From UHGV virus genome UHGV-0236300: a DNA stretch of 64,000 bases. One strand, given 5' to 3'. Source of the DNA: a virus. This document shows positions 2,837 to 64,000 of the stretch, piece after piece; position 1 is the first letter of the stretch; each line of letters opens with the position of its first letter. The position numbers were made by a program, and so were the translations under genes. Below the pieces are notes generated by a model. It did no database searches. It worked only from the letters and a program-made list of their open reading frames with translations, and was not told where the DNA came from.

Positions 2837-4904
2837 ATTCATGGCATCTGCATACAACCGTTTCGGTGAGCCAAACCCGAAAGCAACTAAGTATAAAAGT
2901 GGGGGAAGTGTGAAACGAGACTATCGTGATGAAAAAGAAGTTGAAACTGTAGAGACTGTTTTAGAAAATACTAAAATTGTCCCTGTTCCACAACAAAATA
3001 TTGGACTGATGGCTGCACAATATTTTGGTGTACGATCATCGCTATCCCAAGAGGATGGTGTAACTGTTACTGCCACCTACTTTCCGTATTATGACCGCTA
3101 CGGTAATCTATCTGGCTTTAAAAAGCGGGACTGGACAATCCCTAAAGAGCAAAGGGGCCATTTCTCGGTTGTTGGCATAGTAAAGGCCAACTCCCAGATG
3201 TTTGGTCAAAAGCTGTGTGCATCCTCCAACAACCGCAAGCAGATTAACGTTTGTGAGGGGGAAGGAGATGTTATTGCAGCGTGGCAGGCTGCATATCAGG
3301 TACAAGTAAAAGGAATTCTCACCAATACTAAAGCCCCGGCGAAGGTGAAGCAGTGGGCTAAAGAAGTCCAGGATGGGATTGATGCAGTTATCAACGGCGG
3401 TGATCTGGCAGGAAAACCATGCCTGCCTTTTGTCGGAATTAACTGCGGGTGTGCAAACGCCGTAGACACTTTTGCGAACAATGAGAAATTTATCCGTAGC
3501 TACGGAACAGTAGTCCTTGCAATGGACAACGATGCAGCTAACGAGGTAGAGAAGCAAAAACACGTTATCAAAGGTGTTGAAGCTACGCATAATATCGCAG
3601 CATTTTTGATGGCTGACAACGTTTACCACGTGGAATACCCAGGTGAGGTAAACGACCCTGATGGTGTAAAAGATATTCGTGACATGCTGAAGGCTAAAAA
3701 GCTGGAAGATATTGTCAACATGTTCCGTCACCCAGTCAAATATGTGCCTGATGCTGTATCTGATTTAGAAGACTTCTCCATTGAATCTCTTCGTAAGAAG
3801 ACTTCCAATGGCGTGGATATCAGTGCAGAGTTCCCTAAACTGCAGAAGATGCTGAAAGGACTCCACAAAGGCACCTTGATGATGCTGACAGGCCCGTCTG
3901 GCGGTGGTAAAACAACTGTAGCCAAGAAGCTGGAACATTGCATTGCAAGATACTTGATGGACCCAACATGCCCTAAAGCTGATGATTATGAAGAGGATGA
4001 TCGCCTGTGCCTGATTCACCTTGAAGAGGATCCTGAGGAAGCAATCAACTCTCTGTACGCTAACCAGCTGGGGTTTGATGTTAAAGAGTTTGTTGAAGAC
4101 CCCAGTCAGTTCCTGACCGATCAGGAGCACGCTGAGATTCATCAATCTTGGGCCAAGGCCGGAAAAATCAAAGTGTTCAAGCATTTCGGCTCCATCCCTG
4201 TAGATGAGCTGATCACTAAGCTTAAACAAATGGTGTGCCTGTATCACTGCCGTTACATTGTGCTGGATCACTTGTCTATGGTGATTTCAGGGCTTAATGT
4301 TAAGGATGAGCGTAAAGAGCTTGACATGGCTATGACTCAACTAGCCGCGTTCTGTAAGCAGTTTAATGTGTTTATCTTGGTGATTGCTCACCTGAAGCGC
4401 ACAGAGATTGTACCTCCGAAGGATAAGGATGGAAATCCGTTACCTTTCTGGTACCCTGTACGAAAAGAGAACCTTCGCGGTAGTGCCGGATTGGAGCAAC
4501 TTAGCTGGGTGGTTGTCGGGGTAGAGGCAGAGGAGATGGTGGATCGTTCCCGTGGGCGTGTCCGGCTGGTAGGTCTTAAAAACCGCCCAGCAAAAACCTT
4601 AGGTATTGCGGACACTCTAGTTATGGATCCCCACACAGGCAAGTTCCACGATGCCAGCAATTGGTATTGGGATAAAGAGATGCAGATGTTTACAGACGGG
4701 GAAGGTGGAGAGGTTGTTTGGAGACCTCAAGCTATGTTTGAGGATCAGGAGCATGCAGTTGTAGAAACACCTGTGGGCAAGGTTGTGGCTGATAAGGTTA
4801 TAACTCCTGCTGTTAACCCTGTTGACACACAGGAAGATCTTCAGTATGATGATCCGTCCTCTAACCACGTTCCTGGTTTTGAAGACGACGAAACACCTTT
4901 TTAA
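2826..4904 (+). CDS. DNA primase-helicase (T7 gp4-like)
   Basis: TOPRIM-like CEGEGDVIAAW; Walker A GPSGGGKTT; Walker B-like FILVIAHL; acidic C-terminus ending EDDETPF; RBS AAGGAGA. Confidence 0.85.
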   Translation: MGSKFMASAYNRFGEPNPKATKYKSGGSVKRDYRDEKEVETVETVLENTKIVPVPQQNIGLMAAQYFGVRSSLSQEDGVTVTATYFPYYDRYGNLSGFKKRDWTIPKEQRGHFSVVGIVKANSQMFGQKLCASSNNRKQINVCEGEGDVIAAWQAAYQVQVKGILTNTKAPAKVKQWAKEVQDGIDAVINGGDLAGKPCLPFVGINCGCANAVDTFANNEKFIRSYGTVVLAMDNDAANEVEKQKHVIKGVEATHNIAAFLMADNVYHVEYPGEVNDPDGVKDIRDMLKAKKLEDIVNMFRHPVKYVPDAVSDLEDFSIESLRKKTSNGVDISAEFPKLQKMLKGLHKGTLMMLTGPSGGGKTTVAKKLEHCIARYLMDPTCPKADDYEEDDRLCLIHLEEDPEEAINSLYANQLGFDVKEFVEDPSQFLTDQEHAEIHQSWAKAGKIKVFKHFGSIPVDELITKLKQMVCLYHCRYIVLDHLSMVISGLNVKDERKELDMAMTQLAAFCKQFNVFILVIAHLKRTEIVPPKDKDGNPLPFWYPVRKENLRGSAGLEQLSWVVVGVEAEEMVDRSRGRVRLVGLKNRPAKTLGIADTLVMDPHTGKFHDASNWYWDKEMQMFTDGEGGEVVWRPQAMFEDQEHAVVETPVGKVVADKVITPAVNPVDTQEDLQYDDPSSNHVPGFEDDETPF

Positions 4905-4962
4905 TGTTTAACCAAGAGTGGGAGGGGTAGTACAACCGCCTCCCCTTTAAGGAGAACTGTAT

Positions 4963-7386
4963 ATGAGCATGTGGTCGTTCGATTTTGAGGCCTCTGGCTT
5001 GCTGGAAGACCCAGATCTTTATTATCACTGCGGTTTGTTTAAAGAGCTGAATAAGAACCGTTTTATGCTGTTCCTTCCCCTAAATGACCGCACACACTAC
5101 TCTGAAGAGGATGTGGAGAAAGCTAAGAACTTCATTCTGGCAAAGAAGACCCTTTATACAGATTTTGAGGCTCGCATAGCAGATTTTTCAGAGTTGGAAG
5201 GCTGGCTTACAGGCAATTCAGACTGGTCACCTACGGCTTTGAACTGTCATAACTGCTACAGTTACGACTTTATGCTGATGGAAAGATTATCCGGTATTCA
5301 TTTTGATATGTTCCGTGATCCTAAATGCATGGGAACTATCAACGACCACCAGGTTAATCTGTTTGATACGTTAGCGATGAGTCGAATCTTGTGGCCTGAC
5401 CGCCCTTTGCCAAAAGGTTGTCCAGACGCAGTATTCAATCCAGTTACCAAGAAAATGCAGCCTGTTGGACCTCATGGTCTTATGGCATGGGGCTATGCCC
5501 TTGGTAACCAGAAAGTTCAAATCGATGACTGGCGGGAGCTTCCGCTGTGGAAGTATGTGGATCGTGTGTTCGAGGACGTTATCATTCAGGAGTTGCTCTG
5601 GAAGGAGTTGGTAGCGGAATCAAAAGGTGTATTCTACGGCAAATCTGACATGCAGAACTTTATGTACGATCCTGCCAAAGAGAAGCCGAAAGGCTTCAAG
5701 AAGATCACCTGGAAGAACGCATTACGCCGAGGCATGTTACAGCACTTCCTGATGGAGCTGCAGGCTCGACAGGGGGTGTATTTCGACATAGATGGGGCTA
5801 TTGCTTTACGTGATCGTTGCGATGCGTGGATGAAAGAGATCGCTGATCGTGTTGAACCACAGCTTCCTTTAAAAGAGTTATCAATGTCTCAGCGGCCTAA
5901 GTTCCCTGAAAAGCCGTTTAACCAGGATGGGACAATCTCCAATAATGGTTGGAAATGGTTAAAAGACAAGCTTGGCTATCCTGTGGACATGAGTGCTTTA
6001 GAATTTAAAGCCCCTCCTAAGCGAGCATTTACCTCCACAGGGGATGTAAGTAAGATGGGGATAAAATGGTGTGAAGAGATGGGCTGTAAAGACCCCGATA
6101 AGATGGCTGATTTCTTGAGGGGGTATATCAAAGGAACTTCTACACCACACCCTTTACCTAAAGAGCTGATGGATCAGGCGATAAGTGACCTACAGCAGAA
6201 GCGAATGCCTGACTGCAAGATACCCATGAAAATCAGCAATCAGGACGACATCAAGCGATACCTGATCAGTGCTGGTTGGCTCCCAACAATGTGGAGAACT
6301 AAGGATGTAACTAAGGATAGCAAGAAGAAAGCTTTACCTGATGCAGATGTTGATGCACGAGTATATGCATATATGGACGAGCTTTTGGAGTCAGAGTATT
6401 GTGACCTAATTATCAACTTCTGGAACAAAACTGATGCTAAGTTCCAGACAACTGTACATAAGTTCAGAAGCTTCCCTAACTCTGAAAGAATTAAAAAGGA
6501 AGTGTTCGGGAAAATACGTAGAAAAGCCAGAGCGCTTATTACTTCTCCGCAACTGAAAGATACGTTTGGGCACCTGTGCCCGAATCTTGAAAAATTGAAC
6601 GGAGAGATGGCTAAAGATATCGTTTTGTGGTTATCATTGCGAAACCGTAGATCGGTCCTTGATCCAATCAAGGAAGATAAGGTTGATACTGGTCTTCTTA
6701 ATCATCCACGTTTGAAGATTGACCACAAACTTCCTGCTAAAAGTTCTGGATTAACAAACACTTCCAGACAGAAACATAGTATTTGTGCAAACATGCCTAA
6801 ACCATCTCCTAAAGTGGTTATGGGTAAAGAGATGCGTAGTCTGTGGGGTGTTCCTCCGGGATACTTTGAGATCGGTATTGACGGGTCCAACTTAGAGCAG
6901 CTCATCGGGGCCTGGGGTGCCTTTGAGTTTGACAACGGTCTGTATTATGATGTTGTAAGTAACGGGGACGCGCACCAAAACAATGCTGAGGCATATACAA
7001 AAGTAGCAGGTAGAGAGGTGTCCCGTAACGATGGTAAACCTATCACGTATGGGGTTATGTATGGGGCACAAAAAGATAAAGTTGCAGATATGCTGGATAT
7101 CTCTCCCGAACTGGGGCAGAGAGTAATCGATGCTCTCTGGGATGCCAACCCAGGTCTTAAGGGGCGCAAAGAGGATCTGGAGAAATTCTGGGAAGCAACA
7201 GGTAAGAAATTTATCTACTCTTTTGACGGGCATGCTATTTGGACACGCTCTAAACACTCTTTGCTTAATGCATATCAGCAAAATGGCGGTGCATCACTGT
7301 GTGACCTAGTTGGGATACTCATGCACCACCAGATGGTGAAGCGTGGATGGTATGATGAGGGTGTTCGTCGTATTATTTATTACCAT
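4963..7386 (+). CDS. DNA polymerase, family A, exon 1 (proofreading domain, motifs A and B)
   Basis: Exo I FDFEASG; motif B RxxxKxxxYGVMYG; QQNGGASLCD segment like T7 QSAGALICK; frame hits stop at 7390-7392 just before the expected motif C. Confidence 0.85.
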
Positions 7387-8228: not shown

Positions 8229-8582
8229 GATGAGTACCAACTTCAAGTGCCTGACACACCTAAGTATAAAACTGTATACACCTTCGACACAATTGAAGAG
8301 CTGGAAACATTTAAAGCCCAACAAGAGGCTAAACTTCATGTGTTCGACGGTCATAAGTACAAAAAGGCACGCAAAGATGAGGACGGAAACGAAGTGGTTG
8401 ACAAGGACGGAAATACGGTATACGATCCTATCTTGAACGATGACGGAAAGCTTGAACTTATCTGGAGCCCTGTGGGCGAAATGGTGGTGCATTGCTTCTG
8501 GCAGGCTTCTAAAATGATGGGCGTTCCGTTCCAGATCACAGGTGAATACTTGTGCGGTCGTAACTGGGGCGATTGTCACTAA
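8229..8582 (+). CDS. DNA polymerase, family A, exon 2 (motif C and C-terminus)
   Basis: Begins GAT GAG directly after intron 3' G; with exon 1 gives YYH|DEYQ (motif C HDE); ends GRNWGDCH with terminal His as in T7 gp5. Confidence 0.7.
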   Translation, partial: DEYQLQVPDTPKYKTVYTFDTIEELETFKAQQEAKLHVFDGHKYKKARKDEDGNEVVDKDGNTVYDPILNDDGKLELIWSPVGEMVVHCFWQASKMMGVPFQITGEYLCGRNWGDCH

Positions 8583-8633
8583 TGTAAACTATCAACACAC
8601 GGAAGTGTTGTTAGACAAAGAGAGGAGACTTTT

Positions 8634-8918
8634 ATGGTAGTAGAACCAACAAAAACATTTACCTCCATGACTATCCCTGTCATTATGCAGGTAGAGTGCG
8701 TTCAGGTGTCCCAAGTGTGGCCCGGTACTAAAATTCCAACAGGGCCTGATTTCTTTCAGGTCGGCAAAGTGTATAATGTCTGGAAGGCACCGGATTGTTA
8801 CCCTTTCATTAAAGATGACCGTGGAATGTTATGGTATCTGGGGAATGATTTGACACTGCATCTTGGAAATGCTATTATTGCAGTGTTCCGGCTCAACAAG
8901 AAGGAGACAGATCAATGA
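8634..8918 (+). CDS. hypothetical protein, tandem paralog family member 1 (KDD-G-W motif)
   Basis: RBS GAGAGGAG; shares GKVY...KDDRG.LWYL with the next two ORFs. Confidence 0.5.
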   Translation: MVVEPTKTFTSMTIPVIMQVECVQVSQVWPGTKIPTGPDFFQVGKVYNVWKAPDCYPFIKDDRGMLWYLGNDLTLHLGNAIIAVFRLNKKETDQ

Positions 8919-9142
8919 CAACTTTGGTTAAAGCTACGTTTGTAGAAGAAAAGATGACAGACCTGTCATTCTTTGAAGAAGGTAAGGTCTACAAGGTTTA
9001 TTACGATAAGGATCGCAGGAACAATATGATCGAAGACGAGGACGGTATCTCCTGGTATATCTCCCATCTGTCAAATGGTGAGTATCATATCTATGGGACC
9101 ACCCTACTTGCCAAGTTTGCAGTTGTTGAAGAGGATCTATGA
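8915..9142 (+). CDS. hypothetical protein, tandem paralog family member 2
   Basis: ATGA-coupled start; GKVYKVY...EDEDGISWYI motif. Confidence 0.5.
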   Translation: MTTLVKATFVEEKMTDLSFFEEGKVYKVYYDKDRRNNMIEDEDGISWYISHLSNGEYHIYGTTLLAKFAVVEEDL

Positions 9143-9333
9143 AAGTAAAGTATCTGGCTGAAGGTATGAGTAGGTATTTTACCCTTGGGGAAGAGTATTG
9201 GCCCTTCACGGAAAATGGAGATGTATACGTGAAGGATGACCAAGGTGTGCCGTGGTTTCTGCACCCTAATGGGTTGGGATATTCCATCTACTGCGGTGCG
9301 GTGAACAACACAACCCTTGCAGAGTTTGTATAG
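9139..9333 (+). CDS. hypothetical protein, tandem paralog family member 3
   Basis: ATGA-coupled start; VKDDQGVPWFL motif. Confidence 0.5.
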   Translation: MKVKYLAEGMSRYFTLGEEYWPFTENGDVYVKDDQGVPWFLHPNGLGYSIYCGAVNNTTLAEFV

Positions 9334-9343
9334 AGGAGGTAGA

Positions 9344-9715
9344 ATGTTAGTAAAAGGTACCCACACAGTCAAGCAACGTATTGAAGTTGAGATTGATGAT
9401 TGTGAGCTGAAGCATATTTTACGGTCATGCTCCAACGTTTTGCTCCTTAGTATTCTTCAGGAGCGAGCGGAGAACGAGTTCTTAAATGCACTGGCAGGCC
9501 GTCCTGGGGACTTCTGTGTGCGTAAGCGTGAAGATCGTAAGTCATGGTTGTGGGAAATCGATGCCGACTGGGATTACCACAAAAATGAGGGTATAGATGA
9601 GCCTATTCGTGAATTGACAGACAAAGAGATTCAGATGTACAATGAAGTTTGTCATTGGGCAAAACGCCAACAAATTTACCTCGACCCTGTGTGGATGATT
9701 GAAAATAGTCATTGA
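9344..9715 (+). CDS. hypothetical protein
   Basis: ORF; ATG 9344 preceded by GAGGAGG. Confidence 0.5.
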   Translation: MLVKGTHTVKQRIEVEIDDCELKHILRSCSNVLLLSILQERAENEFLNALAGRPGDFCVRKREDRKSWLWEIDADWDYHKNEGIDEPIRELTDKEIQMYNEVCHWAKRQQIYLDPVWMIENSH

Positions 9716-13850: not shown

Positions 13851-14276
13851 ATGATTTATGAAATGCCAAAACTGATTCGTGACGATGCACGAAACGCCCA
13901 CACCTTTATTATGGGCAAGCGCATGGATATTATTTGTCACAAAGACTTCTGGGAAGGGAGCTACTTCACAGAATATTTTGGAAAAATGGATGATGGCCTA
14001 CTGATCCAGTTTTACACCGATGCGGAAAACAACATTAGTTGGGAGTTCGAGACCGAAGATATCCATAAACTTTTCACCTTCCTTGGTATTAAGATTAAGG
14101 CCAAGTTTGAAGAGGGAGAGTGCGACGATTGTGGATTTTATGAGGTAACAGATTTCTATCTTCCGAGCGGTAAAAACCTTTACTATGAAAGCCACTTCGG
14201 TAACTCCAATATGCCACAGTGCTGGACTGAGTTTTTTGAAATTGTGGAAGAGGAGCTGGAATATCGTGATTATTGA
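13851..14276 (+). CDS. hypothetical protein
   Basis: 141-aa ORF, RBS CTGGAGA. Confidence 0.5.
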   Translation: MIYEMPKLIRDDARNAHTFIMGKRMDIICHKDFWEGSYFTEYFGKMDDGLLIQFYTDAENNISWEFETEDIHKLFTFLGIKIKAKFEEGECDDCGFYEVTDFYLPSGKNLYYESHFGNSNMPQCWTEFFEIVEEELEYRDY

Positions 14277-14724
14277 TACTGTAGAGGGAGATTTAATCTC
14301 CCTTTTTAAGAGCGGTGCTGGTCACCTGATCCACGGTTGTAACTGCTTCCACACAATGGGTAAGGGTGTAGCAAAACAGATTGCCCGTGAGTTCCCTCAA
14401 GCATTGGAAGCTGATAAAATGACTATGCACGGTTGCCTAAGTAAACTGGGCGCGTTCTCCCGCTGGGAGCACTTATCTCCGAGAGGTATTGTCTACGGAA
14501 TAAATCTGTATACTCAGTTCTACCCAGGGCCTAATGCTGAATATTTCTCAATACTGAAAGGATTTGAGCGAGTCAATGAAGTATTTGAGGGGTCGATTTT
14601 ACCATTCTACATCCCTAAGATCGGGTGCGGCATAGGCGGTTTGAAGTGGGAACATGTAGAGGACATTATTAACCTTGCCACTTTTGATATAGATATTATC
14701 GTGGTGGAGTACAAAGAGTGTTGA
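14266..14724 (+). CDS. macro-domain protein (ADP-ribose binding/hydrolase family)
   Basis: LIHGCNCFHTMGKGVAKQIAREF resembles the macro-domain Gly-rich ADP-ribose site; IPKIGCGIGGL resembles the second macro motif; GTG start 14266 after AGGAG, overlapping upstream stop. Confidence 0.6.
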   Translation: MIIDTVEGDLISLFKSGAGHLIHGCNCFHTMGKGVAKQIAREFPQALEADKMTMHGCLSKLGAFSRWEHLSPRGIVYGINLYTQFYPGPNAEYFSILKGFERVNEVFEGSILPFYIPKIGCGIGGLKWEHVEDIINLATFDIDIIVVEYKEC

Positions 14725-57299: not shown

Positions 57300-58583
57300 T
57301 TATTCCAGCACCTCCCAAGTGTCTGGGTTAACATTTCGGACACAGATGCCGACAGGGAATTGGTAGTTGTTGTCTTCTGTCCTTGCTTGATATTTGAAGG
57401 TGACAAACTTGCCGATCATTTCCTGCATCCTGTCATAGCTGCGCTCCTCGTGCGTACCTTTCATCTTCATTTTAACAACGATACCTTCCTTGTCAACACA
57501 GATAAGAACACCTTCATCATTCTTATCTTTCTCAACGTCAATAACTTTCACCTCAGCATCGTTGAACTTTTTCCATTTCAATGCTTCGGATGTTCGCTGA
57601 CCGTATTCGTATTTACCACAGAAGTTACGCATGATAGTACCTTCATATCCTTCGGACATGAATACACCAACAGATTCTTCGCAATGATCAACTGTGTACG
57701 CAAGCTCTGCGTCAACAACCTTGATATTGTCAAGCATCAGAGTGGCAATGGTATCTTCTGCATCCATGAGATCCTTGCATCGTCCAGATTCTGTTTCCGG
57801 ATCCCACCATACCTTGTCACTAGGGATGTCGAAAATATGATACTCTAAGTCATAGCTACAGTACCCTCCGTAACGCAAATCATCACGAACAGGCTCAACA
57901 TCAACAGGAATATCTACCTTATTGAAGTTTTTGTATGTTGATAAGCCTGCCTTAATTGCGGCATGACGGCGTTTTTTATCTGCCTCGTAGTCTTTATCGA
58001 TCTCGGCCTGAATCTCTTCCTGTGTGCGCCACCGTTTAGCAAGAGACACTATTTTCTGCAGAGGCAGACCATGAATATAGATCTCTCCGTCGAGCTGTTT
58101 AATCCCGGTGGTGAAGTGGAAAGAACGAAGTTGCTCCAGAAGCTTTCCTTGAATAGGGTAGGACTTATTACCACGGGAAATAAATTTAGGCTCACCGTTT
58201 TGGAAAACAACCAGTAGACGAAGGCCATCTAACTTACGCAAGATCCAGCAAGGCAATTTAAGTGCCTTTCCACGCTTCAGGTAGTCATGCACCAGCATGG
58301 GTAAAAGGTCAACACCCTGCTCGCAATCTTCCATATTTTCAACATACCCCAGACGGACTTGTTTTTCCCACTTACTGATCGCTTCCAGCTCAGCCTGTTG
58401 CTCAGCTGTAGTTTCATTGGCACGACCCACGTTCTTAGGTGTGCAGATCGTCTCTTTGTATTGCAGTTTACCATCAAGCTTGCCAAACTCTACGATAACC
58501 TTATCACCATCCGTGAATACTTTCCACTGTTGGTAGCTGCCATCTTTGTTCAGTGCGTACAGTGTTGTTTTAATCTGATGCAT
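57300..58583 (-). CDS. ATP-dependent DNA ligase
   Basis: Adenylation motif I KLDGLR; RBS AGGAAGAGG. Confidence 0.6.
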   Translation of the reverse strand: MHQIKTTLYALNKDGSYQQWKVFTDGDKVIVEFGKLDGKLQYKETICTPKNVGRANETTAEQQAELEAISKWEKQVRLGYVENMEDCEQGVDLLPMLVHDYLKRGKALKLPCWILRKLDGLRLLVVFQNGEPKFISRGNKSYPIQGKLLEQLRSFHFTTGIKQLDGEIYIHGLPLQKIVSLAKRWRTQEEIQAEIDKDYEADKKRRHAAIKAGLSTYKNFNKVDIPVDVEPVRDDLRYGGYCSYDLEYHIFDIPSDKVWWDPETESGRCKDLMDAEDTIATLMLDNIKVVDAELAYTVDHCEESVGVFMSEGYEGTIMRNFCGKYEYGQRTSEALKWKKFNDAEVKVIDVEKDKNDEGVLICVDKEGIVVKMKMKGTHEERSYDRMQEMIGKFVTFKYQARTEDNNYQFPVGICVRNVNPDTWEVLE

Positions 58584-58852: not shown

Positions 58853-59147
58853 TGCAGTCCTCCTTCTCTAATAGGTCTTTTATCGGGTAAACAAGTAGGT
58901 GTGGATCGTAATAATTTATAGTTTTATTCTGCCACACTATGAACTTAATTACAACTAAATTTACCACATCTTTATCTCCATGCAGTCCAACACACAGATT
59001 TGTCCATACTTTGTGGTTGAATACTTTGCTGTCGATATAGATCTTAGTGTCAAACTTATCCTCTATCCTACCTATAAGTTTAACCAATTCTTTCATCTGA
59101 TCCCCAAACACATCATCGTTTTCAAGATCTCTGGAGTGCTTGTACAT
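58839..59147 (-). CDS. hypothetical protein
   Basis: RBS GAGGTAG. Confidence 0.5.
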   Translation of the reverse strand: MYKHSRDLENDDVFGDQMKELVKLIGRIEDKFDTKIYIDSKVFNHKVWTNLCVGLHGDKDVVNLVVIKFIVWQNKTINYYDPHLLVYPIKDLLEKEDCNAVI

Positions 59148-59169
59148 AACTTTCTACCTCACTTGCATA

Positions 59170-59204
59170 CTTTCCGAAACAAGTAAAGCCGGGATCGCCC
59201 CGGC
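59170..59204 (-). terminator. rho-independent terminator
   Basis: Minus-strand hairpin GCCGGG/CCCGGC then U-rich CTTTACTTGTTT. Confidence 0.55.
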
Positions 59205-59211
59205 TATGTTA

Positions 59212-59925
59212 TTAAATATATTCTGTTACATCCTTGAAGCTTGAAGGCTTCATAATCTTACCTTTACTGTCGAGGAATATGATAACTTTATTTCCGTTGT
59301 AGAATTCTTCTTTAGCAACAAAACCTTCATAGCGACCATCAAAGCGTCGCTCAAGATCTTTAATCTCCAACTCGATGAGTTGTTCAGCAGGCATATCTGC
59401 ACTGGCACCGTGTGAATGCCGCAGATGGTTGACACGTGCAAACTTGCTGTCATTAGATTTTAGAACCTTCCGCATCATCCCGCACACATCACCGCGAAGC
59501 TGGAACAGTAAAGCCGTTGACAGCTCTGCTAAGCGGTAAGCAGACGCTCTTTGCTTAGAGGTATTTTTCGCAGCGATCAGTGTATCATAAAATTCACCGA
59601 TCTTAAACTTAAGACCTCGCGGATTATCAAACAGGTTTGACCACTTTTCATGGTTATCGTTAACAAGATAAGCGGCATAACTTGTGACAACGTGAAGATC
59701 GCAGGCCTCTTTTAGGAGATGATCCCCACCATCACCTTTCTCCAACTCTTCCAAAACTTCATTGAACTCTTCCTCAATGAAACTCAGCTGAAGTTCGAAT
59801 GGTGTGTATGATTTTTTCACTTTAGCTGCTACACGGTTCCAATTTTCCACCCAGTTGGCAGACCAAAGGTAGTTTTCAGGCTGAGACAGTTTTTCCAGGT
59901 TGTCGATCAGTTTAGTATTCAGCAT
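59212..59925 (-). CDS. MazG-like nucleotide pyrophosphohydrolase domain protein
   Basis: IEEEFNEVLEELEKGD...LLKEACDLHVV matches the MazG EExxE...D...E..D core; RBS GGAGG. Confidence 0.55.
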   Translation of the reverse strand: MLNTKLIDNLEKLSQPENYLWSANWVENWNRVAAKVKKSYTPFELQLSFIEEEFNEVLEELEKGDGGDHLLKEACDLHVVTSYAAYLVNDNHEKWSNLFDNPRGLKFKIGEFYDTLIAAKNTSKQRASAYRLAELSTALLFQLRGDVCGMMRKVLKSNDSKFARVNHLRHSHGASADMPAEQLIELEIKDLERRFDGRYEGFVAKEEFYNGNKVIIFLDSKGKIMKPSSFKDVTEYI

Positions 59926-59939
59926 TAAAAGGCCTCCGC

Positions 59940-60701
59940 TTACAGTTCCATAAAGTTTTCTACGATGTCAATAAATGTTTTATCAGAGAAAGCGTCAACC
60001 GCCCCGTTAAACCAAACTGGGATGCCGCGATCCTCATACTGGTAAATGTCACTACGTGAAATGCCATTCTCCCCTAAATGCTGTGAGTCGTATTTGTTGA
60101 CGATCAGCAGTTTGGTTCCCTTATTACAGGCAGGGAATAGCTCCCAGTTAAAATTGATAACTGTGTTGGAGCACCCTACAAGGATAACCATATCATTGCT
60201 CGTCAGAGAAGTCAACAGGTCATACATGTCTGTATACTTTGGAGCTACTTCTCCGAAAAACACTACATTAGGCTTAACCCAAGTATACTTGCTTGCGTCT
60301 ACCTCAGAGTATCCAATGTCTTTAATGACGTCACTCCCTTCATCATCCTCGTAGACTATTTCTGGCAAATATCCGTGGACATGTAAAATATCTTCATGTT
60401 TTACACCAGCACGCTCCAGCAAATCATCTACATTGGTTGTCAGGTTGATCACACGACCAGACCAGCGTGAATACCACTCAGCGATCCGGAGATGTGCAAG
60501 GTTAGGATCAACACTGCCCAAAGCTACACGCCGTGCATTGTAAAAGTCATGCACCTTATAGTAGTTCTTGGCAAAGGTGTGGATGTTACACACCTCATCG
60601 ATGCTGAAATTCTCCCACATTGCAGTGCCACCAGATCGGAAAGTGGGGATACCAGATTCAGCGCTCAAACCAGCACCGGAGATAATGATCAGTCGTCGCA
60701 T
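59940..60701 (-). CDS. Sir2-family (sirtuin) NAD-dependent deacylase / ADP-ribosyltransferase
   Basis: GAGLSAESGIPTFR, TTNVDDLLERAG, catalytic His in LHVHGY, VVFFGE, ILVGCSNTV; no obvious Zn-ribbon cysteines; RBS GAGGA. Confidence 0.8.
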   Translation of the reverse strand: MRRLIIISGAGLSAESGIPTFRSGGTAMWENFSIDEVCNIHTFAKNYYKVHDFYNARRVALGSVDPNLAHLRIAEWYSRWSGRVINLTTNVDDLLERAGVKHEDILHVHGYLPEIVYEDDEGSDVIKDIGYSEVDASKYTWVKPNVVFFGEVAPKYTDMYDLLTSLTSNDMVILVGCSNTVINFNWELFPACNKGTKLLIVNKYDSQHLGENGISRSDIYQYEDRGIPVWFNGAVDAFSDKTFIDIVENFMEL

Positions 60702-60709
60702 AAGTGTCC

Positions 60710-61060
60710 TCAGTAGATGTTTTGTTTAATCTCTATTCCAAACTTTTTAAACGAGTCAGCAGCAAGCATGAATTTACGAGCCGCTGATGGGTTAGAAGTA
60801 TGCACGAAAATCTTCACGTTGTCAACTACAGGAGGCTTACCAAATACAAATTTTTCCTCCAGCATAGATAGGCAATCGTACCCTTCAAATACCTCTCCAA
60901 GGTCGTTGTCCATGTGCCACTCAGAAACGCGCCTGTAGAGCTTTCTCTTATCGTTAATAAAATCCATAAACTCAGAGGAATTCTTTAGCCAAATAGCATC
61001 TGGGAGCCCATAATTTGACGGATCTCTCAAGTCATCCAGCCACACAATCAACTTCTTCAT
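60710..61060 (-). CDS. hypothetical protein upstream of the sirtuin gene
   Basis: 116-aa ORF, RBS GAGGA; N-terminus MKKLIVWLDD. Confidence 0.5.
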   Translation of the reverse strand: MKKLIVWLDDLRDPSNYGLPDAIWLKNSSEFMDFINDKRKLYRRVSEWHMDNDLGEVFEGYDCLSMLEEKFVFGKPPVVDNVKIFVHTSNPSAARKFMLAADSFKKFGIEIKQNIY

Positions 61061-61992
61061 TGCATATAGTCCTCGTTGTGGAAATAGCAGTCAAGTATCT
61101 CACTGCGTTCCTGCTCTAGGAGGCAGTTCCACACATCTTCTGTGTAATTGTTACGAATGAAGTTTACCATGCCGTAAAACTCTTCGTCAATACGTTTAAA
61201 GATATCATCATCCCAAATCTTCCAAGCTTTACCCCTCATTACGGCCTTCCGTGCCAAATAGTATGGAGACTTGATCTTCAGCTGCAGATCATAAGGGTAG
61301 TAAGGCTTACGAATCATATACCCTTCACCTCTTGTTTCTGCAGCTAATTCTTTTGCATAGCTGAACGGAATTTCACGCACAGTGTGAGGACGTTTTGCAC
61401 CAAGGTATTTGGCAATCCCATCTAAAGCTGCTTCTGGTAGCATTATTCCAGAATCATTATATCTGCAACCTATCAAATATGCGCCATGATCTTCCTGAAC
61501 AATATGCGGATCTGAAGGGTGACAAATTTCAAACATGAATGTCATGTTTTCATGGCCCATAACCCTCTTGATAAGATCTAAATTACCACATTGCTCCTGG
61601 ATTGTTTCCTTTGCGAGGTTACAATATGGAGAATCAAGAGACCCGGTTGTTGAGAACAATAGTTCACCTTTATGAGATGATACCACACCAAGGAATCCGT
61701 TCTTTTTCTCTACCGCCGTCACAAGTTTATTGTCAGGCAGGTTGGTGGAATTTTCTCCCAAGTTAAACACTTTTGTGAAGGGCCATGCCACAACATTTCC
61801 TTCATTACCGACAACAATGCCTCGGCACTCCAGCAAACGAGGAGACAAATGCCATAAATTGTTGTAGAATACTTTTCTGGCATATTTATAGATCTTTAAC
61901 CCAAGATCCGGGTAATATCTGCTGGTTACAAGACCTTTGTCAACTAGGTCGTCTGCATTAAAATACTTCATTATACATTCCTCATTTGTCAT
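61057..61992 (-). CDS. RNA ligase 1 (T4 Rnl1-like)
   Basis: LECRGIVV, KVFNLGEN and KKNGFLGVVS match T4 Rnl1 LECRGIMF, KFFNLNEN, KEDGSLVS (recalled from memory). Confidence 0.75.
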   Translation of the reverse strand: MTNEECIMKYFNADDLVDKGLVTSRYYPDLGLKIYKYARKVFYNNLWHLSPRLLECRGIVVGNEGNVVAWPFTKVFNLGENSTNLPDNKLVTAVEKKNGFLGVVSSHKGELLFSTTGSLDSPYCNLAKETIQEQCGNLDLIKRVMGHENMTFMFEICHPSDPHIVQEDHGAYLIGCRYNDSGIMLPEAALDGIAKYLGAKRPHTVREIPFSYAKELAAETRGEGYMIRKPYYPYDLQLKIKSPYYLARKAVMRGKAWKIWDDDIFKRIDEEFYGMVNFIRNNYTEDVWNCLLEQERSEILDCYFHNEDYMQ

Positions 61993-62046
61993 TTTGTCCC
62001 TTTATCCTGCCACACAAATAACTTGGTGTCAACACTTGAAATTAAC

Positions 62047-62075
62047 AAAACAGTTAGGTATACTATCATTAAAAT
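62047..62075 (+). promoter_or_regulatory. sigma70-like promoter
   Basis: TTGAAA, 17-nt spacer, TATACT. Confidence 0.5.
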
Positions 62076-62092
62076 TAAAACGGAGAGTTACT

Positions 62093-62503
62093 ATGTCTAA
62101 AATGCTATATATCGTGCGTGGTCTACCAGGGTCTGGCAAATCAACACTGGCAAATGCGCTATCTTTAGAAGGTCTGTATCCACATTTTGAGAACGATATG
62201 TTCTGGTACGACGATGACGGCAATTACAATTGGGATGCAAGTAAAGTAACACTTGCAGCAAAATGGTGCAAAGATAACGTAGAAGATATGATGCGTATGG
62301 GCTACGACCGTATCGTGGTAAGTAATACGTTTACAAAAGAAAAATATGTGCAAGAATATATTGACATGGCGATCAGTCATGGATATAGTTATACCGTGAT
62401 CGTGGTTGAAAACCGCCATGGTAATAAAAGCATTCATGATGTTCCAGACAGGGTTGTGGATCGTATGGAACGCCAGCTTAAAAACTGCATTAAACTTAAA
62501 TGA
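62093..62503 (+). CDS. polynucleotide 5'-kinase (T4 Pnk kinase-domain-like)
   Basis: Walker A GLPGSGKST; C-terminal ENRHGNKSIHDVPDRVVDRM resembles T4 Pnk RNSKRGTKAVPIDVLRSM; RBS GGAGAG. Confidence 0.7.
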   Translation: MSKMLYIVRGLPGSGKSTLANALSLEGLYPHFENDMFWYDDDGNYNWDASKVTLAAKWCKDNVEDMMRMGYDRIVVSNTFTKEKYVQEYIDMAISHGYSYTVIVVENRHGNKSIHDVPDRVVDRMERQLKNCIKLK

Positions 62504-62510
62504 GGAATGT

Positions 62511-63065
62511 ATGAAATACTTTGTAACAAGCGACACACACTTTCTCCACCAGCGGGTAATGGAGTTCGACTCATGTCAAAAACACAGATCTCAGTATGAT
62601 CACAATCTTGACAGTATGAATGCGGGAATCATCACCAAGTGGAACTCTGTTGTGTCACCTGCAGACACTGTGTTTCACTTGGGGGATATTGCGTGCACTA
62701 ATGATAAGAATATCAACAAATTGCTTCCAGATGTTCTAAATATGTTGAACGGACATATTATTCTTGTTCGTGGTAACCATGACACAAAGACGACTGTCAG
62801 AATTATGAAAGAGTTCGGTCATGAGGTTGTAGATTATTACGAGCTTCGCCACAACAAGAATTTGATCTGTATGAGCCATTACCAGTTTGCAAAGTGGAAC
62901 AGAAAGCCTCACGGATCAGTCCAACTGTTCGGTCATGCTCACGGAACCACACAGCAGTTGTTTGGCAGGCAGTTTGATGTCGGTTGGGATGTGTGGGGGA
63001 GACTCTTACCATTAGAAGAGGCATACCGTATTGCAATGAGTCTTGCTATTGACAGCGGGGAGTAA
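62511..63065 (+). CDS. calcineurin-like metallophosphoesterase (candidate 2',3'/3'-phosphatase)
   Basis: DTHF, GDIAC and GNHD metal-binding motifs; RBS GAGGA. Confidence 0.65.
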   Translation: MKYFVTSDTHFLHQRVMEFDSCQKHRSQYDHNLDSMNAGIITKWNSVVSPADTVFHLGDIACTNDKNINKLLPDVLNMLNGHIILVRGNHDTKTTVRIMKEFGHEVVDYYELRHNKNLICMSHYQFAKWNRKPHGSVQLFGHAHGTTQQLFGRQFDVGWDVWGRLLPLEEAYRIAMSLAIDSGE

Positions 63066-63112
63066 TCCCTGCTATTTTAAAGAAAATTGCCACACAAGGA
63101 GAATCAGGAGAT

Positions 63113-63463
63113 ATGAAAGATGGGGATAAGCTGCTATATCTTAAAGTCCCCCTTGAAATACTGTCTATGTCAAAAGTTTTGAATGACACAACTGGGGAGG
63201 TTGTTGTTCTTGACTTATATGACAAGATCGTATACTGCTACCTGCACAACTGGTATAAGCTTGGAGAAAATTCACGCTTCACACCCAGCACAAGGAAAAT
63301 TGCAGCAGATGTTGGGATAAAGAAAACAAAAGCAGCAGCGTGCGTTAAAACTTTAGAATGTGCAGGAGTGGTTGAAATATCCACACAAGGGAGAGGTAAA
63401 AGATGCACATTTTCCAAAGTTTTGCCACCAGAAGAAGTTATTCGAATGTCAACAACTGGTTAG
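63113..63463 (+). CDS. putative DNA-binding (HTH / winged-helix) protein
   Basis: STRKIAADVGIKKTKAAACVKTLECAGVVEI resembles an HTH; followed by operator-like repeats; RBS AAGGAGAATCAGGAGA. Confidence 0.5.
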   Translation: MKDGDKLLYLKVPLEILSMSKVLNDTTGEVVVLDLYDKIVYCYLHNWYKLGENSRFTPSTRKIAADVGIKKTKAAACVKTLECAGVVEISTQGRGKRCTFSKVLPPEEVIRMSTTG

Positions 63464-63545
63464 ACCAGTAAAAACTTAAACATCTGTACTATAAGGATTT
63501 GTATGTTTTATGTTCACTATGGAACAGAGGTTAGTAACTGTCCGT

Positions 63546-63632
63546 GATACGGACACTACTGTCCGTCACGCGGACACATCTGCCCGTAATACGGACACTA
63601 ACTGTCCGTGATACGGACACATAAAGAATATA
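63546..63632. repeat. four tandem palindromic sites (operator/iteron array)
   Basis: ACTGTCCGTGATACGGACAC-type units at 63546, 63567, 63590, 63610 (about 21-22 bp spacing), each an inverted repeat GTCCG-N5-CGGAC. Confidence 0.7.
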
Positions 63633-63660
63633 ACTAAAATAACTAAATAATAAAAAATAA

Positions 63661-63725
63661 AAGATCTAGTACTTATGGTACTAAAGTACATATACTTAAC
63701 TTATGTAGAATATACTAGATCCTAA
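63661..63725. repeat. AT-rich segment bounded by a 9-10 bp inverted repeat
   Basis: AGATCTAGTA ... TACTAGATC with internal GTACTAAAGTAC palindrome. Confidence 0.45.
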
Positions 63726-64000
63726 GCACCATGTTTTAAATTTATTACTTATTATGGGTAGTGTCGGCCCTTCATTGGCACTCGCCTACGAGGGGCGAGA
63801 TGCCGGGCCTCCATAGTGCACACAATAACAGAAGTGCATACATGCAGGACTGTTAACATGTGTGGGAGCGAAGCGATAGCGCAGGCCAAAGGCCGAGCAC
63901 TAATGTGGACCACCGACGAAAGCTTGCCAGCGCCGGAAGGAGTCGGTTGAGAGCCTCCCGCGCGAGTTCGGATAAAGTTTATGTGTGGAAACTGACAAGA

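Follow-up and report, generated by a model that had tools for sequence, protein, structure and literature searches.

Defences that cut tRNA, among them PrrC, RloC, PARIS, retron-linked nucleases, Cas13, HEPN nucleases and Schlafen-like nucleases, are now recognised as one of the main branches of bacterial immunity. The anticodon nuclease PrrC is countered by the tRNA repair pathway of phage T4, which consists of the polynucleotide kinase Pnk (PseT) and the RNA ligase Rnl1 (gp63), and to our knowledge this is the only phage repair pathway that has been validated. Do the ligase, kinase and phosphatase genes that lie side by side in the 64-kb stretch of phage DNA analysed here (the window) encode another such pathway, and how is it built? 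As judged by sequence comparison, the locus is likely an RNA break-repair (heal-and-seal) gene cluster of an rV5-like E. coli phage (Vequintavirus). This finding is already known: deposited Vequintavirus genomes, which match the window at 99% identity, carry repair-gene annotations in GenBank, and these annotations as well as comparative genomics published in 2022 precede the present analysis.

Table 1. Genes and putative control elements of the repair locus (positions in the 64-kb window).
Feature	Position	Strand	Details
G+C-rich hairpin, terminator-like on both strands	59187..59205	.	just downstream of the MazG-like gene; consensus scan
MazG-like nucleotide pyrophosphohydrolase	59212..59925	-	237 aa; phrog_671; last gene of the leftward unit
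Sirtuin (Sir2-family)	59940..60701	-	253 aa; Pfam SIR2, phrog_2162
cREC (cyclic-phosphate processing receiver-like)	60710..61060	-	116 aa; PF20274, phrog_1479
Rnl1-family ATP-dependent RNA ligase	61057..61971	-	304 aa from M8 (probable start); ORF reaches upstream ATG at 61992
Divergent intergenic control region	61972..62092	.	promoter-like site and kinase ribosome-binding site
Standalone polynucleotide-kinase-like P-loop kinase	62093..62503	+	136 aa; ATG 62093; AAA_33, phrog_2071, phrog_505
Calcineurin-like dinuclear metallophosphoesterase (MPE), aq_1665 (1XM7) clade	62511..63065	+	184 aa; ATG 62511

The genes form two divergent units (Table 1). The leftward unit contains the genes for the ligase, cREC, the sirtuin and the MazG-like protein in this order, and an intergenic region of 100-121 nt separates it from the rightward kinase-MPE pair. 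Both units show operon-like coupling: the start codon of cREC overlaps the stop codon of the ligase gene (ATGA), the sirtuin gene starts 8 nt past the cREC stop codon, the MPE gene starts 7 nt past the kinase stop codon, and a GAGGA Shine-Dalgarno sequence lies ahead of each downstream gene. The preliminary description had proposed an RNA repair module with a ligase gene divergent from a rightward operon for a kinase and a phosphatase. This layout was confirmed and the three genes are real, since strongly significant family matches on long ORFs are not due to chance; the cluster as it had been described was incomplete, however, because the cREC, Sir2 and MazG-like genes of the ligase's own transcription unit had been missed. 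The kinase operon is preceded by a sigma70-like site (TTGAAA-17-TATACT at 62036-62064, plus strand), which is a consensus match only but a plausible promoter, and a GGAGAG ribosome-binding site precedes the kinase ATG. For the ligase operon, the consensus scan returned no minus-strand promoter in the intergenic region, and a minus-strand 'promoter' at 61943-61914 was disregarded, as it lies inside a gene. The hairpin downstream of the MazG-like gene, also a pattern match only, is built from 8 pairs, of which 6 are G-C, and on the minus strand a T-rich tail comes after it. A tRNA gene search of the 64-kb window and an Rfam search of the region from 56 to 64 kb gave no hits, so that the window holds no module-associated RNA element; in relatives, 5-6 clustered tRNA genes lie around 3 kb downstream of the MPE gene on the same strand.

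The ligase ORF matches the Pfam family RNA_lig_T4_1 (PF09511; E 1e-14, 55.3 bits against a cutoff of 28.3) and phrog_562 (E 7e-66). Its true start is probably the ATG of M8: this is where the homologues start, and a GAGGA sequence is found 7 nt upstream. Motif I (KxxG, with the lysine nucleophile) and motifs III, IV and V are present, and the residues K96-K-N-G99, F154-E155, E223-G224 and K239-x-K241 are invariant among 38 family members. Ten catalytic or essential positions of T4 Rnl1 are kept, among them R54 (R57 in the window ligase), K99 (K96), E159 (E155), E227/G228 (E223/G224) and K240/K242 (K239/K241); G99 aligns with T4 G102. Likewise invariant are R57, K74 and F76, which align with R54, K75 and F77 of T4 Rnl1, residues that we take from the mutagenesis work of the Shuman laboratory to be the Rnl1-specific N-terminal essential ones. 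With 39 bits, the protein falls far short of the cutoff of 242 of the NCBIfam equivalog TIGR02308 (T4 RnlA) despite passing that of PF09511; its relation to T4 RnlA is thus one of superfamily or family and not an orthologue-level match. Identity to T4 Rnl1 is around 20%. A single-sequence PDB search yielded only a spurious match (E 0.7), and family profiles were needed for informative PDB searches with both the ligase and the kinase. Among ligase families, T4 Rnl1 is the closest in overall fold. The ligase domains of Trl1 are only slightly more distant from the window ligase than T4 Rnl1, and the enzyme is not of the Rnl4 type found in Pnkp. The profile alignments end at T4 residues 248-249: past motif V, the window ligase has only about 60 residues with helices at 243-254, 270-282, 285-290 and 293-305, and the all-helical C-terminal tRNA-specificity domain of T4 Rnl1 (~120 aa) is absent. 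In addition, T4 K119 is not retained, the aligned residue being T116. In view of this replacement and the short C-terminal tail, a preference of the ligase for tRNA should not be assumed.

The kinase matches AAA_33 (E 3e-10), phrog_2071 (E 1e-58) and phrog_505, annotated as 'polynucleotide kinase' (E 3e-10). R9, G10, G15, K16, T18, D35, N78, T79, E106, N107, H109 and G110 are invariant in the family; S17, R108 and the remaining positions of the P-loop G10-L-P-G-S-G-K16-S-T are conserved in at least 90% of the sequences. The P-loop aligns with that of T4 Pnk, and D35 lies opposite T4 D36, one position off the catalytic D35 of T4. R108, part of the conserved ENRHG motif, is opposite T4 R122, which together with R38 and R126 presumably makes up the phosphate-binding arginines of T4 Pnk; the position of R38 is occupied by an aromatic residue, and N78 is found opposite T4 D85. 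While a single-sequence PDB search gave P-loop matches only, hhalign aligned the protein with residues 2-141 of T4 Pnk (probability 95.9%) and covered nothing beyond. The HAD/DxDxT phosphatase domain is absent, and the 136 residues comprise the kinase domain only. Foldseek searches with an AF2 model (pLDDT 85.8) returned T4 Pnk (1ly1, TM 0.75), the Clostridium thermocellum kinase CthPnk (4jst/4gp6, TM 0.76-0.78) and PSTK (TM 0.73) as top matches, with gluconate, UMP-CMP and APS kinases lower at TM 0.51-0.55. The protein is thus predicted to be a standalone kinase of the PNK clade.

The MPE matches the Pfam family Metallophos (E 2e-5, 25.4 bits against a cutoff of 21.5) and phrog_547 (E 9e-50). 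The long TTG-started ORF at 62406-63065 overstates the gene, which starts at the internal ATG given in Table 1. All five metallophosphoesterase motifs are present (D8-x-H10, G58-D59, G88-N89-H90-D, H123 and G141-H142-x-H144), and in 33 sequences the named residues are invariant except for D8, which is conserved in at least 90%, and the D following H90. Searched against the PDB, the family profile identified 1xm7, the structural-genomics metallophosphoesterase aq_1665 of Aquifex aeolicus (E 6e-23). It is the closest solved relative and has the same motif set; its own function is uncharacterised, and it is therefore no guide to the substrate of the MPE. Similarity to the ligase-associated PdeM family is weak (E 2e-4, 20.6 bits against a cutoff of 150). 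Together, these data bear out the Rnl1-like ligase, the separate kinase without a fused HAD phosphatase and the separate calcineurin-type phosphatase of the preliminary description. Its further claim that the phosphatase is closer to Pnkp-type healing enzymes did not hold: at the family level, the MPE belongs to the aq_1665 clade and is not lambda-phosphatase-like, nor is the ligase of the Rnl4 type of Pnkp.

The remaining genes of the leftward unit give the locus a broader content. cREC matches PF20274 (E 2e-14, 54.5 bits against a cutoff of 27) and phrog_1479 (E 6e-35), with D9, D10, R12, D51, D53, L54, G55, N90 and P91 invariant. Its invariant acidic residues and its linkage to ligase and sirtuin genes fit cREC, a receiver-like domain that is characterised by conserved acidic active-site residues, has no partner histidine kinase and is linked to RNA ligase or NAD-processing genes. 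The sirtuin matches Pfam SIR2 (E 1e-26) and phrog_2162 (E 9e-109), and its CobB-like NCBIfam matches stay under the curated cutoffs. The customary zinc-ribbon cysteines are missing from it, and this may be a sign of something other than ordinary protein deacylase activity. The MazG-like protein was recognised by phrog_671 (E 1e-21) and has no Pfam match. When seven window proteins were searched against the PADLOC defence library, nothing was found for Sir2, cREC, MPE, ligase or the MazG-like protein, and the kinase gave only weak matches at the level of the P-loop. A 'phosphatase' annotated in the nearest relative was considered as a second 3'-phosphatase and rejected, as it is a Macro/DarG-like protein located 46 kb away.

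Whether these enzymes belong together was assessed on 80 viral contigs picked by the ligase and 79 picked by the kinase, with neighbours counted within 6 kb. The kinase accompanies the ligase in 72 of 80 contigs and the MPE does so in 62, in at least four gene orders. Among the kinase-picked contigs, the MPE is present in 55 of 79 and an RNA ligase, either Rnl1-like or Rnl2-like, in at least 48; kinase and MPE are also found together where no ligase is detected at this distance, and 31 of the 79 kinase loci have no detected ligase. The other genes of the leftward unit are found near the ligase far less often (cREC in 13/80, a MazG-like homologue in 12/80 and Sir2 in 11/80 loci). cREC is flanked by genes of the module in gene orders that are independent of each other, and it also adjoins Rnl2-type ligases; in relatives with genomes of ~146 kb, cREC lies between ligase and kinase, and Sir2 comes immediately after the latter, all on one strand. 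A database search found the ligase, kinase and MPE genes in 122 phage records. The activities are also joined covalently. Some phages encode kinase::ligase fusion proteins of 421-432 aa, Cardiobacteriaceae possess kinase::ligase fusions with a member of the MPE family directly next in three of four loci, and cyanobacterial fusions of ~710 aa combine kinase, Metallophos and RNA_lig_T4_1 domains in that order; an RtcB gene is located at a distance of 1.6 kb. Because the triad co-occurs in most related phage contigs and also occurs fused, the predicted joint action of ligase, kinase and MPE in RNA heal-and-seal, as had been proposed for this locus, is well supported in silico.

The leftward unit could also be read as a counter-defence cassette, in which cREC, the sirtuin, the MazG-like protein and perhaps the MPE would degrade or divert NAD/ADP-ribose and nucleotide signals, for instance cyclic nucleotides, cyclic ADP-ribose, (p)ppGpp-like alarmones or NAD derivatives, with RNA ligation as a separate neighbour. 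Sirtuins consume NAD, the same phage encodes a DarG-like Macro protein (14185-14721), cREC has been described as confined to NAD/ADP-ribose-processing or RNA-repair contexts, and the low frequency of Sir2 and cREC marks them as not core to the triad. However, the reading is unlikely: cREC overlaps the ligase gene in the window, is enclosed by ligase and kinase and followed by Sir2 in the ~146-kb relatives, and adjoins ligases of a second family, the MPE keeps company with the ligase in most loci, and the sirtuin has no PADLOC match. Even less probable is that the kinase and the MPE clean 5'-OH/3'-phosphate DNA ends for a nearby DNA ligase, as eukaryotic PNKP does, with the RNA ligase as a bystander. 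T4 Pnk and mammalian PNKP do act on DNA, an ATP-dependent DNA ligase is encoded 2.5 kb off in the same leftward block (57300-58583) and has a homologue in 31 of 80 loci, and both the weak PdeM match and the contigs with a kinase-MPE pair but no nearby RNA ligase would fit. Yet the PdeM score is far under its cutoff, the tight linkage, by adjacency as well as by the two- and three-domain fusions, is to RNA ligases of two families and not to the DNA ligase, and a predicted RNA-end or ADP-ribose cyclic-phosphate domain, cREC, is embedded in the module. That the ligase homologue mainly catalyses tail-fibre attachment, the second, non-enzymatic role that T4 gp63 has besides ligation and for which phrog_562 and many GenBank records are named ('RNA ligase 1 and tail attachment protein'), can practically be dismissed, since the annotation is judged a name transfer from T4 across low sequence identity, the gene lies in an early/metabolic block and not among tail genes, its catalytic residues are strictly conserved, and homologues adjoin end-healing enzymes or are joined to them in one protein, not only in phages but also in bacteria, where there is no tail fibre to attach.

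As a predicted RNA heal-and-seal module, the locus can be compared with several known repair systems. In T4 Pnk, the kinase is fused to a HAD-type 3'-phosphatase, whereas the window kinase stands alone and 3' healing is assigned to the MPE and/or cREC; the T4 ligase also differs by its tRNA-specificity domain, in place of which the window ligase has a short tail. Bacterial Pnkp, which occurs with or without Hen1 in organisms such as Clostridium thermocellum and Anabaena, combines kinase, MPE and ligase domains in one polypeptide, whereas three genes are used here. Both have the same three activities, predicted in the case of the window, and a phosphoesterase of the same superfamily, CthPnk is one of the closest structures to the window kinase, and the cyanobacterial ligase homologues are fused in the domain order of Pnkp. 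However, the lambda-phosphatase-like MPE and the Rnl4-type ligase domains of Pnkp are both lacking in the window. Compared to the fungal and plant pathway of Trl1 and Tpt1 (KptA), the components are separate proteins, and the module contains neither a 2H cyclic phosphodiesterase nor a Tpt1/KptA gene.

The enzyme families suggest the following scheme, in which substrates, step order and biological trigger are inferred. A metal-independent endoribonuclease of the host or a competitor, such as an anticodon nuclease or a toxin RNase, would cut tRNA or another RNA; by analogy with T4, tRNA cut by anticodon nucleases is the candidate target. The 3' end would then be healed by the MPE, cREC or both, which open and/or remove the cyclic phosphate; as both proteins are present, either may handle it. 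The PNK-like kinase would phosphorylate the 5'-OH end at the expense of an NTP, and the ligase, adenylylated on K96, would transfer AMP to the 5'-phosphate and seal the break. Points that weigh against the scheme are the missing R38 equivalent and N78 in the kinase, the replaced K119 and the short tail of the ligase, and the kinase-MPE pairs that have no ligase nearby. As lineage-restricted accessories, sirtuin and MazG-like protein could carry out a clean-up step that depends on NAD or act separately in a conflict over NAD or nucleotides. A specific form of such a clean-up step, a Tpt1/KptA-like role of the sirtuin, was proposed by Iyer et al. (2022; PMC9503650). In this yeast- or plant-style route, the cyclic phosphate would be opened to a 2'-phosphate, and after Trl1-like ligation the 2'-phosphate would be moved to NAD. 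It is doubtful that the sirtuin and cREC perform NAD-dependent 2'-phosphate removal of this kind. The closeness of the Trl1 ligase domains and the missing zinc-ribbon cysteines are compatible with it; however, a complete MPE could directly produce 2'-OH/3'-OH ends and make the route unnecessary, and Sir2 is rarely located beside the ligase. If true, the enzymatic repertoire of sirtuins would be extended by a new activity.

The neighbourhood of phage V5 has been described by Iyer, Burroughs, Anantharaman and Aravind (Viruses 2022;14:1977; PMC9503650), who independently predicted NAD-linked RNA repair. It belongs to type 2 of their sirtuin-centred phage RNA-repair neighbourhoods, the prototypes of which are Escherichia phage V5 and Proteus phage Mydo and which contain a T4-like tRNA ligase, cREC, a nucleotide kinase, a sirtuin, a MazG pyrophosphatase and a calcineurin-like phosphoesterase. 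The window harbours the same locus from the same phage lineage, and both studies are computational. They differ in what is regarded as the centre: Iyer et al. place the sirtuin there and call the calcineurin-like enzyme 'occasional', whereas the counts given above make ligase, kinase and MPE the core, with Sir2 and cREC as lineage-restricted parts. Our literature search retrieved no paper with a biochemical or genetic test of the rV5-type module and no assay of any enzyme from this ligase, kinase, MPE or cREC subfamily. Taken together, the rV5-type cluster is a widespread repair kit that is built differently from that of T4, with a standalone kinase, an MPE of an uncharacterised clade and the never-assayed cREC domain. 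Its value is that of a ready experimental system rather than of a discovery: it is located in tractable E. coli phages, including members of the BASEL collection such as Bas52 (RudolfGeigy), in which the function of cREC, a possible part of the sirtuin in RNA repair and the range of host nucleases that are neutralised can be addressed.

The stretch derives from an rV5-like E. coli phage of the genus Vequintavirus; across 59000-64000 it shares 99.1% identity with phage NHEP1 and has matches in 122 phage records, of which a good many name an 'RNA ligase', a 'polynucleotide kinase' and a 'phosphoesterase' (an alternative kinase label is '3'-phosphatase, 5'-polynucleotide kinase'). A preliminary description had proposed an RNA repair module at 61057-63065, in which a ligase gene is divergent from genes for a kinase and a calcineurin-like metallophosphoesterase (MPE), and all three open reading frames (ORFs) are present in this arrangement. 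This reading is supported, but it was incomplete, as it overlooked the genes for a cyclic-phosphate processing receiver protein (cREC), a sirtuin (Sir2) and a MazG-like enzyme. The kinase and MPE genes lie 7 nt apart, the ligase stop and cREC start codons overlap in an ATGA, the sirtuin gene starts 8 nt past the cREC stop codon, and a GAGGA ribosome-binding site precedes every downstream gene of the cluster. The locus thus reads as two divergent units out of 61972-62092, with translational coupling: the leftward unit comprises ligase, cREC, Sir2 and MazG-like, and the rightward unit kinase and MPE, continuing into a helix-turn-helix (HTH) gene. The latter unit extends, in relatives, as far as 5-6 tRNA genes on the same strand, ~3 kb downstream of the MPE gene (Arg, Tyr, Thr, Met or Ile, Pro and, in some, Lys), whose content varies between close relatives; no tRNA genes were found inside the window.

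Features of the RNA repair cluster, nearby signals and comparison loci
Feature	Position	Strand	Matches and remarks
MazG-like pyrophosphohydrolase	59212-59925	minus	PHROG 671
Sirtuin	59940-60701	minus	Pfam SIR2, E 1e-26
cREC, 116 aa	60710-61060	minus	Pfam PF20274 'cyclic-phosphate processing receiver domain', E 2e-14
RNA ligase	ORF 61057-61992	minus	Pfam RNA_lig_T4_1, E 1e-14 (above curated cutoff); PHROG 562, E 7e-66
P-loop kinase, 136 aa	ATG 62093 to 62503	plus	AAA_33; PHROG 2071, E 1e-58; PHROG 505 'polynucleotide kinase'
Calcineurin-like MPE, 184 aa	ATG 62511 to 63065	plus	Metallophos; PHROG 547, E 9e-50
HTH_36/DUF6945 protein, 116 aa	63113-63463	plus	directly 3' of MPE; PHROG 12838
G+C-rich hairpin	59187-59205		beyond MazG-like gene in leftward unit
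AAATGAGGAATGTAT, copy 1	61973-61987	minus	5' of ligase start (M8)
AAATGAGGAATGTAT, copy 2	62498-62512	plus	5' of MPE start
Sigma70-like site	63049-63078		TTGACA-18-TATTTT, extended TG
Macro-domain protein, 179 aa	14185-14721	plus	Pfam Macro, E 2e-7; 46 kb from module
tRNA cluster, relative L001	13006-13941		beyond window end
tRNA cluster, relative L002	13002-13814		beyond window end
cREC-Rnl2-type ligase, freshwater phage contigs L187 and L197	9086-10625		also with kinase-MPE pair
cREC-Rnl2-type ligase, freshwater phage contigs L125 and L126	9529-11345		also with kinase-MPE pair
Three-domain protein locus L108 (Leptolyngbya sp. PCC 7375)	4726-6864 and 8466-9647		chromosomal

GenBank relatives disagree on the ligase start (61971 or 61992) and annotate 936-nt and 918-nt forms. 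Homologues start at codon 8 of the window ORF and a GAGGA lies 7 nt 5' of that ATG, so that 61971 is the likelier start, and we favour the shorter form. A long TTG-initiated ORF, 62406-63065, exaggerates the extent of the MPE gene. The identical 15-nt copies of AAATGAGGAATGTAT, a Shine-Dalgarno sequence plus spacer, are the only two in 64 kb (0.03 expected by chance); they could stem from a small duplication or serve to co-ordinate translation. The HTH protein is named 'replication initiation protein' or 'transcriptional regulator' in different annotations. The maximum of the cumulative GC skew, near 26 kb, and its minimum, near 62 kb, coincide with the two points at which the gene blocks switch strand; the RNA-repair cluster spans the second of these.

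The ligase belongs to a family of 1,679 database proteins (E<=0.001; typical length ~300 aa), and R57, K74, F76, K96-x-N98-G99, E155, E223-G224 and K239-x-K241 are among the residues invariant in 38 aligned members. The only PDB match of the family profile is T4 Rnl1 (E 4e-12), to which hhalign aligned the window ligase with 97.3% probability, matching R54, K75, F77, K99, G102, E159, E227, G228, K240 and K242 of T4 Rnl1 and placing T116 at the position of T4 K119. In the ligase comparison, T4 Rnl1 reached 23.0 (263 residues aligned), followed by fungal Trl1 ligase domains (20.8-21.9), archaeal Rnl3 (16-17), Rnl5 (13), Rnl2 (12) and the bacterial Pnkp ligase domain (8.0). The enzyme is placed in the Rnl1/Trl1 clade as a short, divergent ligase with an intact active site. 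It misses the T4 RnlA equivalog threshold (39 vs 242 bits), and in place of the ~120-residue domain that confers tRNA specificity after motif V of T4 Rnl1 it has ~60 helical residues; its substrate preference can thus not be read from T4.

The kinase family (at least 7,988 matches) consists of standalone 'predicted kinases' of ~130 aa with invariant P-loop (R9-G10...G15-K16...T18), D35, N78-T79 and E106-N107...H109-G110, while conservation of S77 and R108 reaches 90% or more. hhalign covered kinase-domain residues 2-141 of T4 Pnk (95.9% probability), and for the predicted model (pLDDT 85.8) the nearest structures are the kinase domains of T4 Pnk (TM 0.75) and C. thermocellum Pnk (TM 0.76-0.78) and PSTK (TM 0.73), a tRNA-acting kinase, with lower scores for small-molecule kinases. 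This gives a good basis for placing it in the PNK clade and bears out the proposal of a 5'-kinase without fused phosphatase, since the 136-aa protein lacks a HAD domain. An aromatic residue occupies the position of T4 R38 and N78 is aligned with T4 D85; details of acceptor binding are predicted to differ from T4 Pnk. The phosphatase is, as proposed, encoded by a separate calcineurin-type gene, and all five motifs (D8-x-H10, G58-D59, G88-N89-H90, H123 and G141-H142-x-H144) are conserved over 33 family members. Among solved structures, its closest relative is Aquifex aq_1665 (1XM7; profile E 6e-23), a structural-genomics protein without known function, and the family profile matched no lambda-phosphatase or Pnkp phosphatase chain in the PDB at E<=0.1. 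The suggested closeness to bacterial Pnkp-type healing enzymes therefore holds at superfamily level only and was wrong as a specific affinity.

The linkage of the three enzymes is conserved. Within 6 kb of the ligase gene in 80 IMG/VR viral contigs chosen by the ligase (36-49% identity, except for one near-identical rV5-like contig), a kinase was found in 72, an MPE in 62, cREC in 13, MazG-like in 12 and Sir2 in 11 loci. Gene orders include mpe-lig-kin, kin-lig-mpe, crec-mpe-lig-kin and crec-kin-lig-mpe, as well as mpe-lig-crec-kin-sir2 on one strand in ~146-kb genomes; among these contigs the divergent layout is confined to the rV5 genus. In 79 new viral contigs chosen by the kinase, 55 contain the MPE, 19 cREC and at least 48 an RNA ligase of the window family or the Rnl2-like PF09414 family. 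In some of them, cREC lies directly upstream of the Rnl2-type ligase, and its association with RNA ligases thus covers two ligase families. Kinase::ligase fusions occur in 14 contigs, two of them incomplete at the contig end; intact ones measure 421-432 aa, with both domains confirmed by Pfam in L047. No MPE of the window family lies within 6 kb of the fusions in the IMG/VR phage contigs L042, L043, L047-L049, L051, L054 and L057-L059, so that 3'-end healing would be done there by something else or not be needed. In cellular genomes the ligase family is found almost only in fusions: Cardiobacteriaceae encode kinase::ligase proteins of ~490-504 aa, with a window-family MPE gene directly next in 3/4 loci, and Leptolyngbyaceae ~710-aa proteins with AAA_33, Metallophos and RNA_lig_T4_1 domains. 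Chromosomal proteins of this kind occur in L108 and ~25 other cyanobacterial loci. They have the domain order of Pnkp, but an Rnl1-type ligase domain. In L108, an RtcB gene follows 1.6 kb downstream, with a Pol-beta NTase/DUF29 pair in between, and no Hen1 was found among the ORFs checked. Such fusions are strong evidence that kinase, MPE and ligase activities share one substrate.

Of the remaining leftward genes, those for the sirtuin and the MazG-like enzyme rank as accessory. In the sirtuin, the NAD-binding motif GAGxS...GIPxFR and the catalytic HG are preserved, and the interval between HG and FFGE, the usual site of the CxxC...CxxC zinc ribbon, is free of cysteines. The protein also stays under every CobB equivalog cutoff and has no defence-type Sir2 match; these features suggest something other than an ordinary protein deacylase. 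cREC has invariant D9, D10, R12, D51, D53, L54, G55, N90 and P91. It was introduced, with its linkage to RNA ligases, by Iyer et al. 2021 (PMC7824862); Iyer et al. 2022 (PMC9503650) published the same neighbourhood, described cREC as experimentally uncharacterised and proposed RNA repair that depends on NAD, in which the sirtuin would play the part of KptA/Tpt1. As a rival to the RNA repair reading, cREC, Sir2, MazG-like and possibly the MPE might mainly serve counter-defence against NAD/ADP-ribose or nucleotide signals, which we consider unlikely. The distant Macro-domain protein, which the nearest relative labels only 'phosphatase', has DarG (E 4e-14) as its best PADLOC match and may counter DarT-type ADP-ribosylation or process ADP-ribose by-products of the sirtuin or RNA repair.

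A joint role of the cluster in RNA end-healing and sealing is probable, and the chances that host-inflicted tRNA damage is the main substrate appear about even. What the analysis itself shows are the enzyme and fold classes, the intact active sites, translational coupling, conserved linkage and gene fusions. By the precedents of T4 Pnk/Rnl1, bacterial Pnkp and Trl1, the MPE and/or cREC would heal the 3' end, the kinase would phosphorylate the 5' end and the ligase would close the break via a K96-AMP intermediate. DNA-end processing is quite improbable, and a main function in tail-fibre attachment is still less probable.

The genes had been annotated and the RNA repair prediction published before; a 2025 genome paper on a related Pseudomonas phage contains the same proposal, and no paper was found that tests a cluster component biochemically or genetically. 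The cluster follows the functional logic of T4 Pnk/Rnl1 with different parts and can be read as a split version of a Pnkp-style three-activity enzyme, but lies outside both the T4 bifunctional Pnk and Pnkp families. Added here are the residue- and fold-level classification of ligase, kinase and MPE, the catalogue of fusion proteins and the corrected ligase start codon. Furthermore, ligase, kinase and MPE form a widespread core, to which Sir2 and cREC are lineage-restricted add-ons, and this turns round the emphasis of the 'sirtuin-centred' description.
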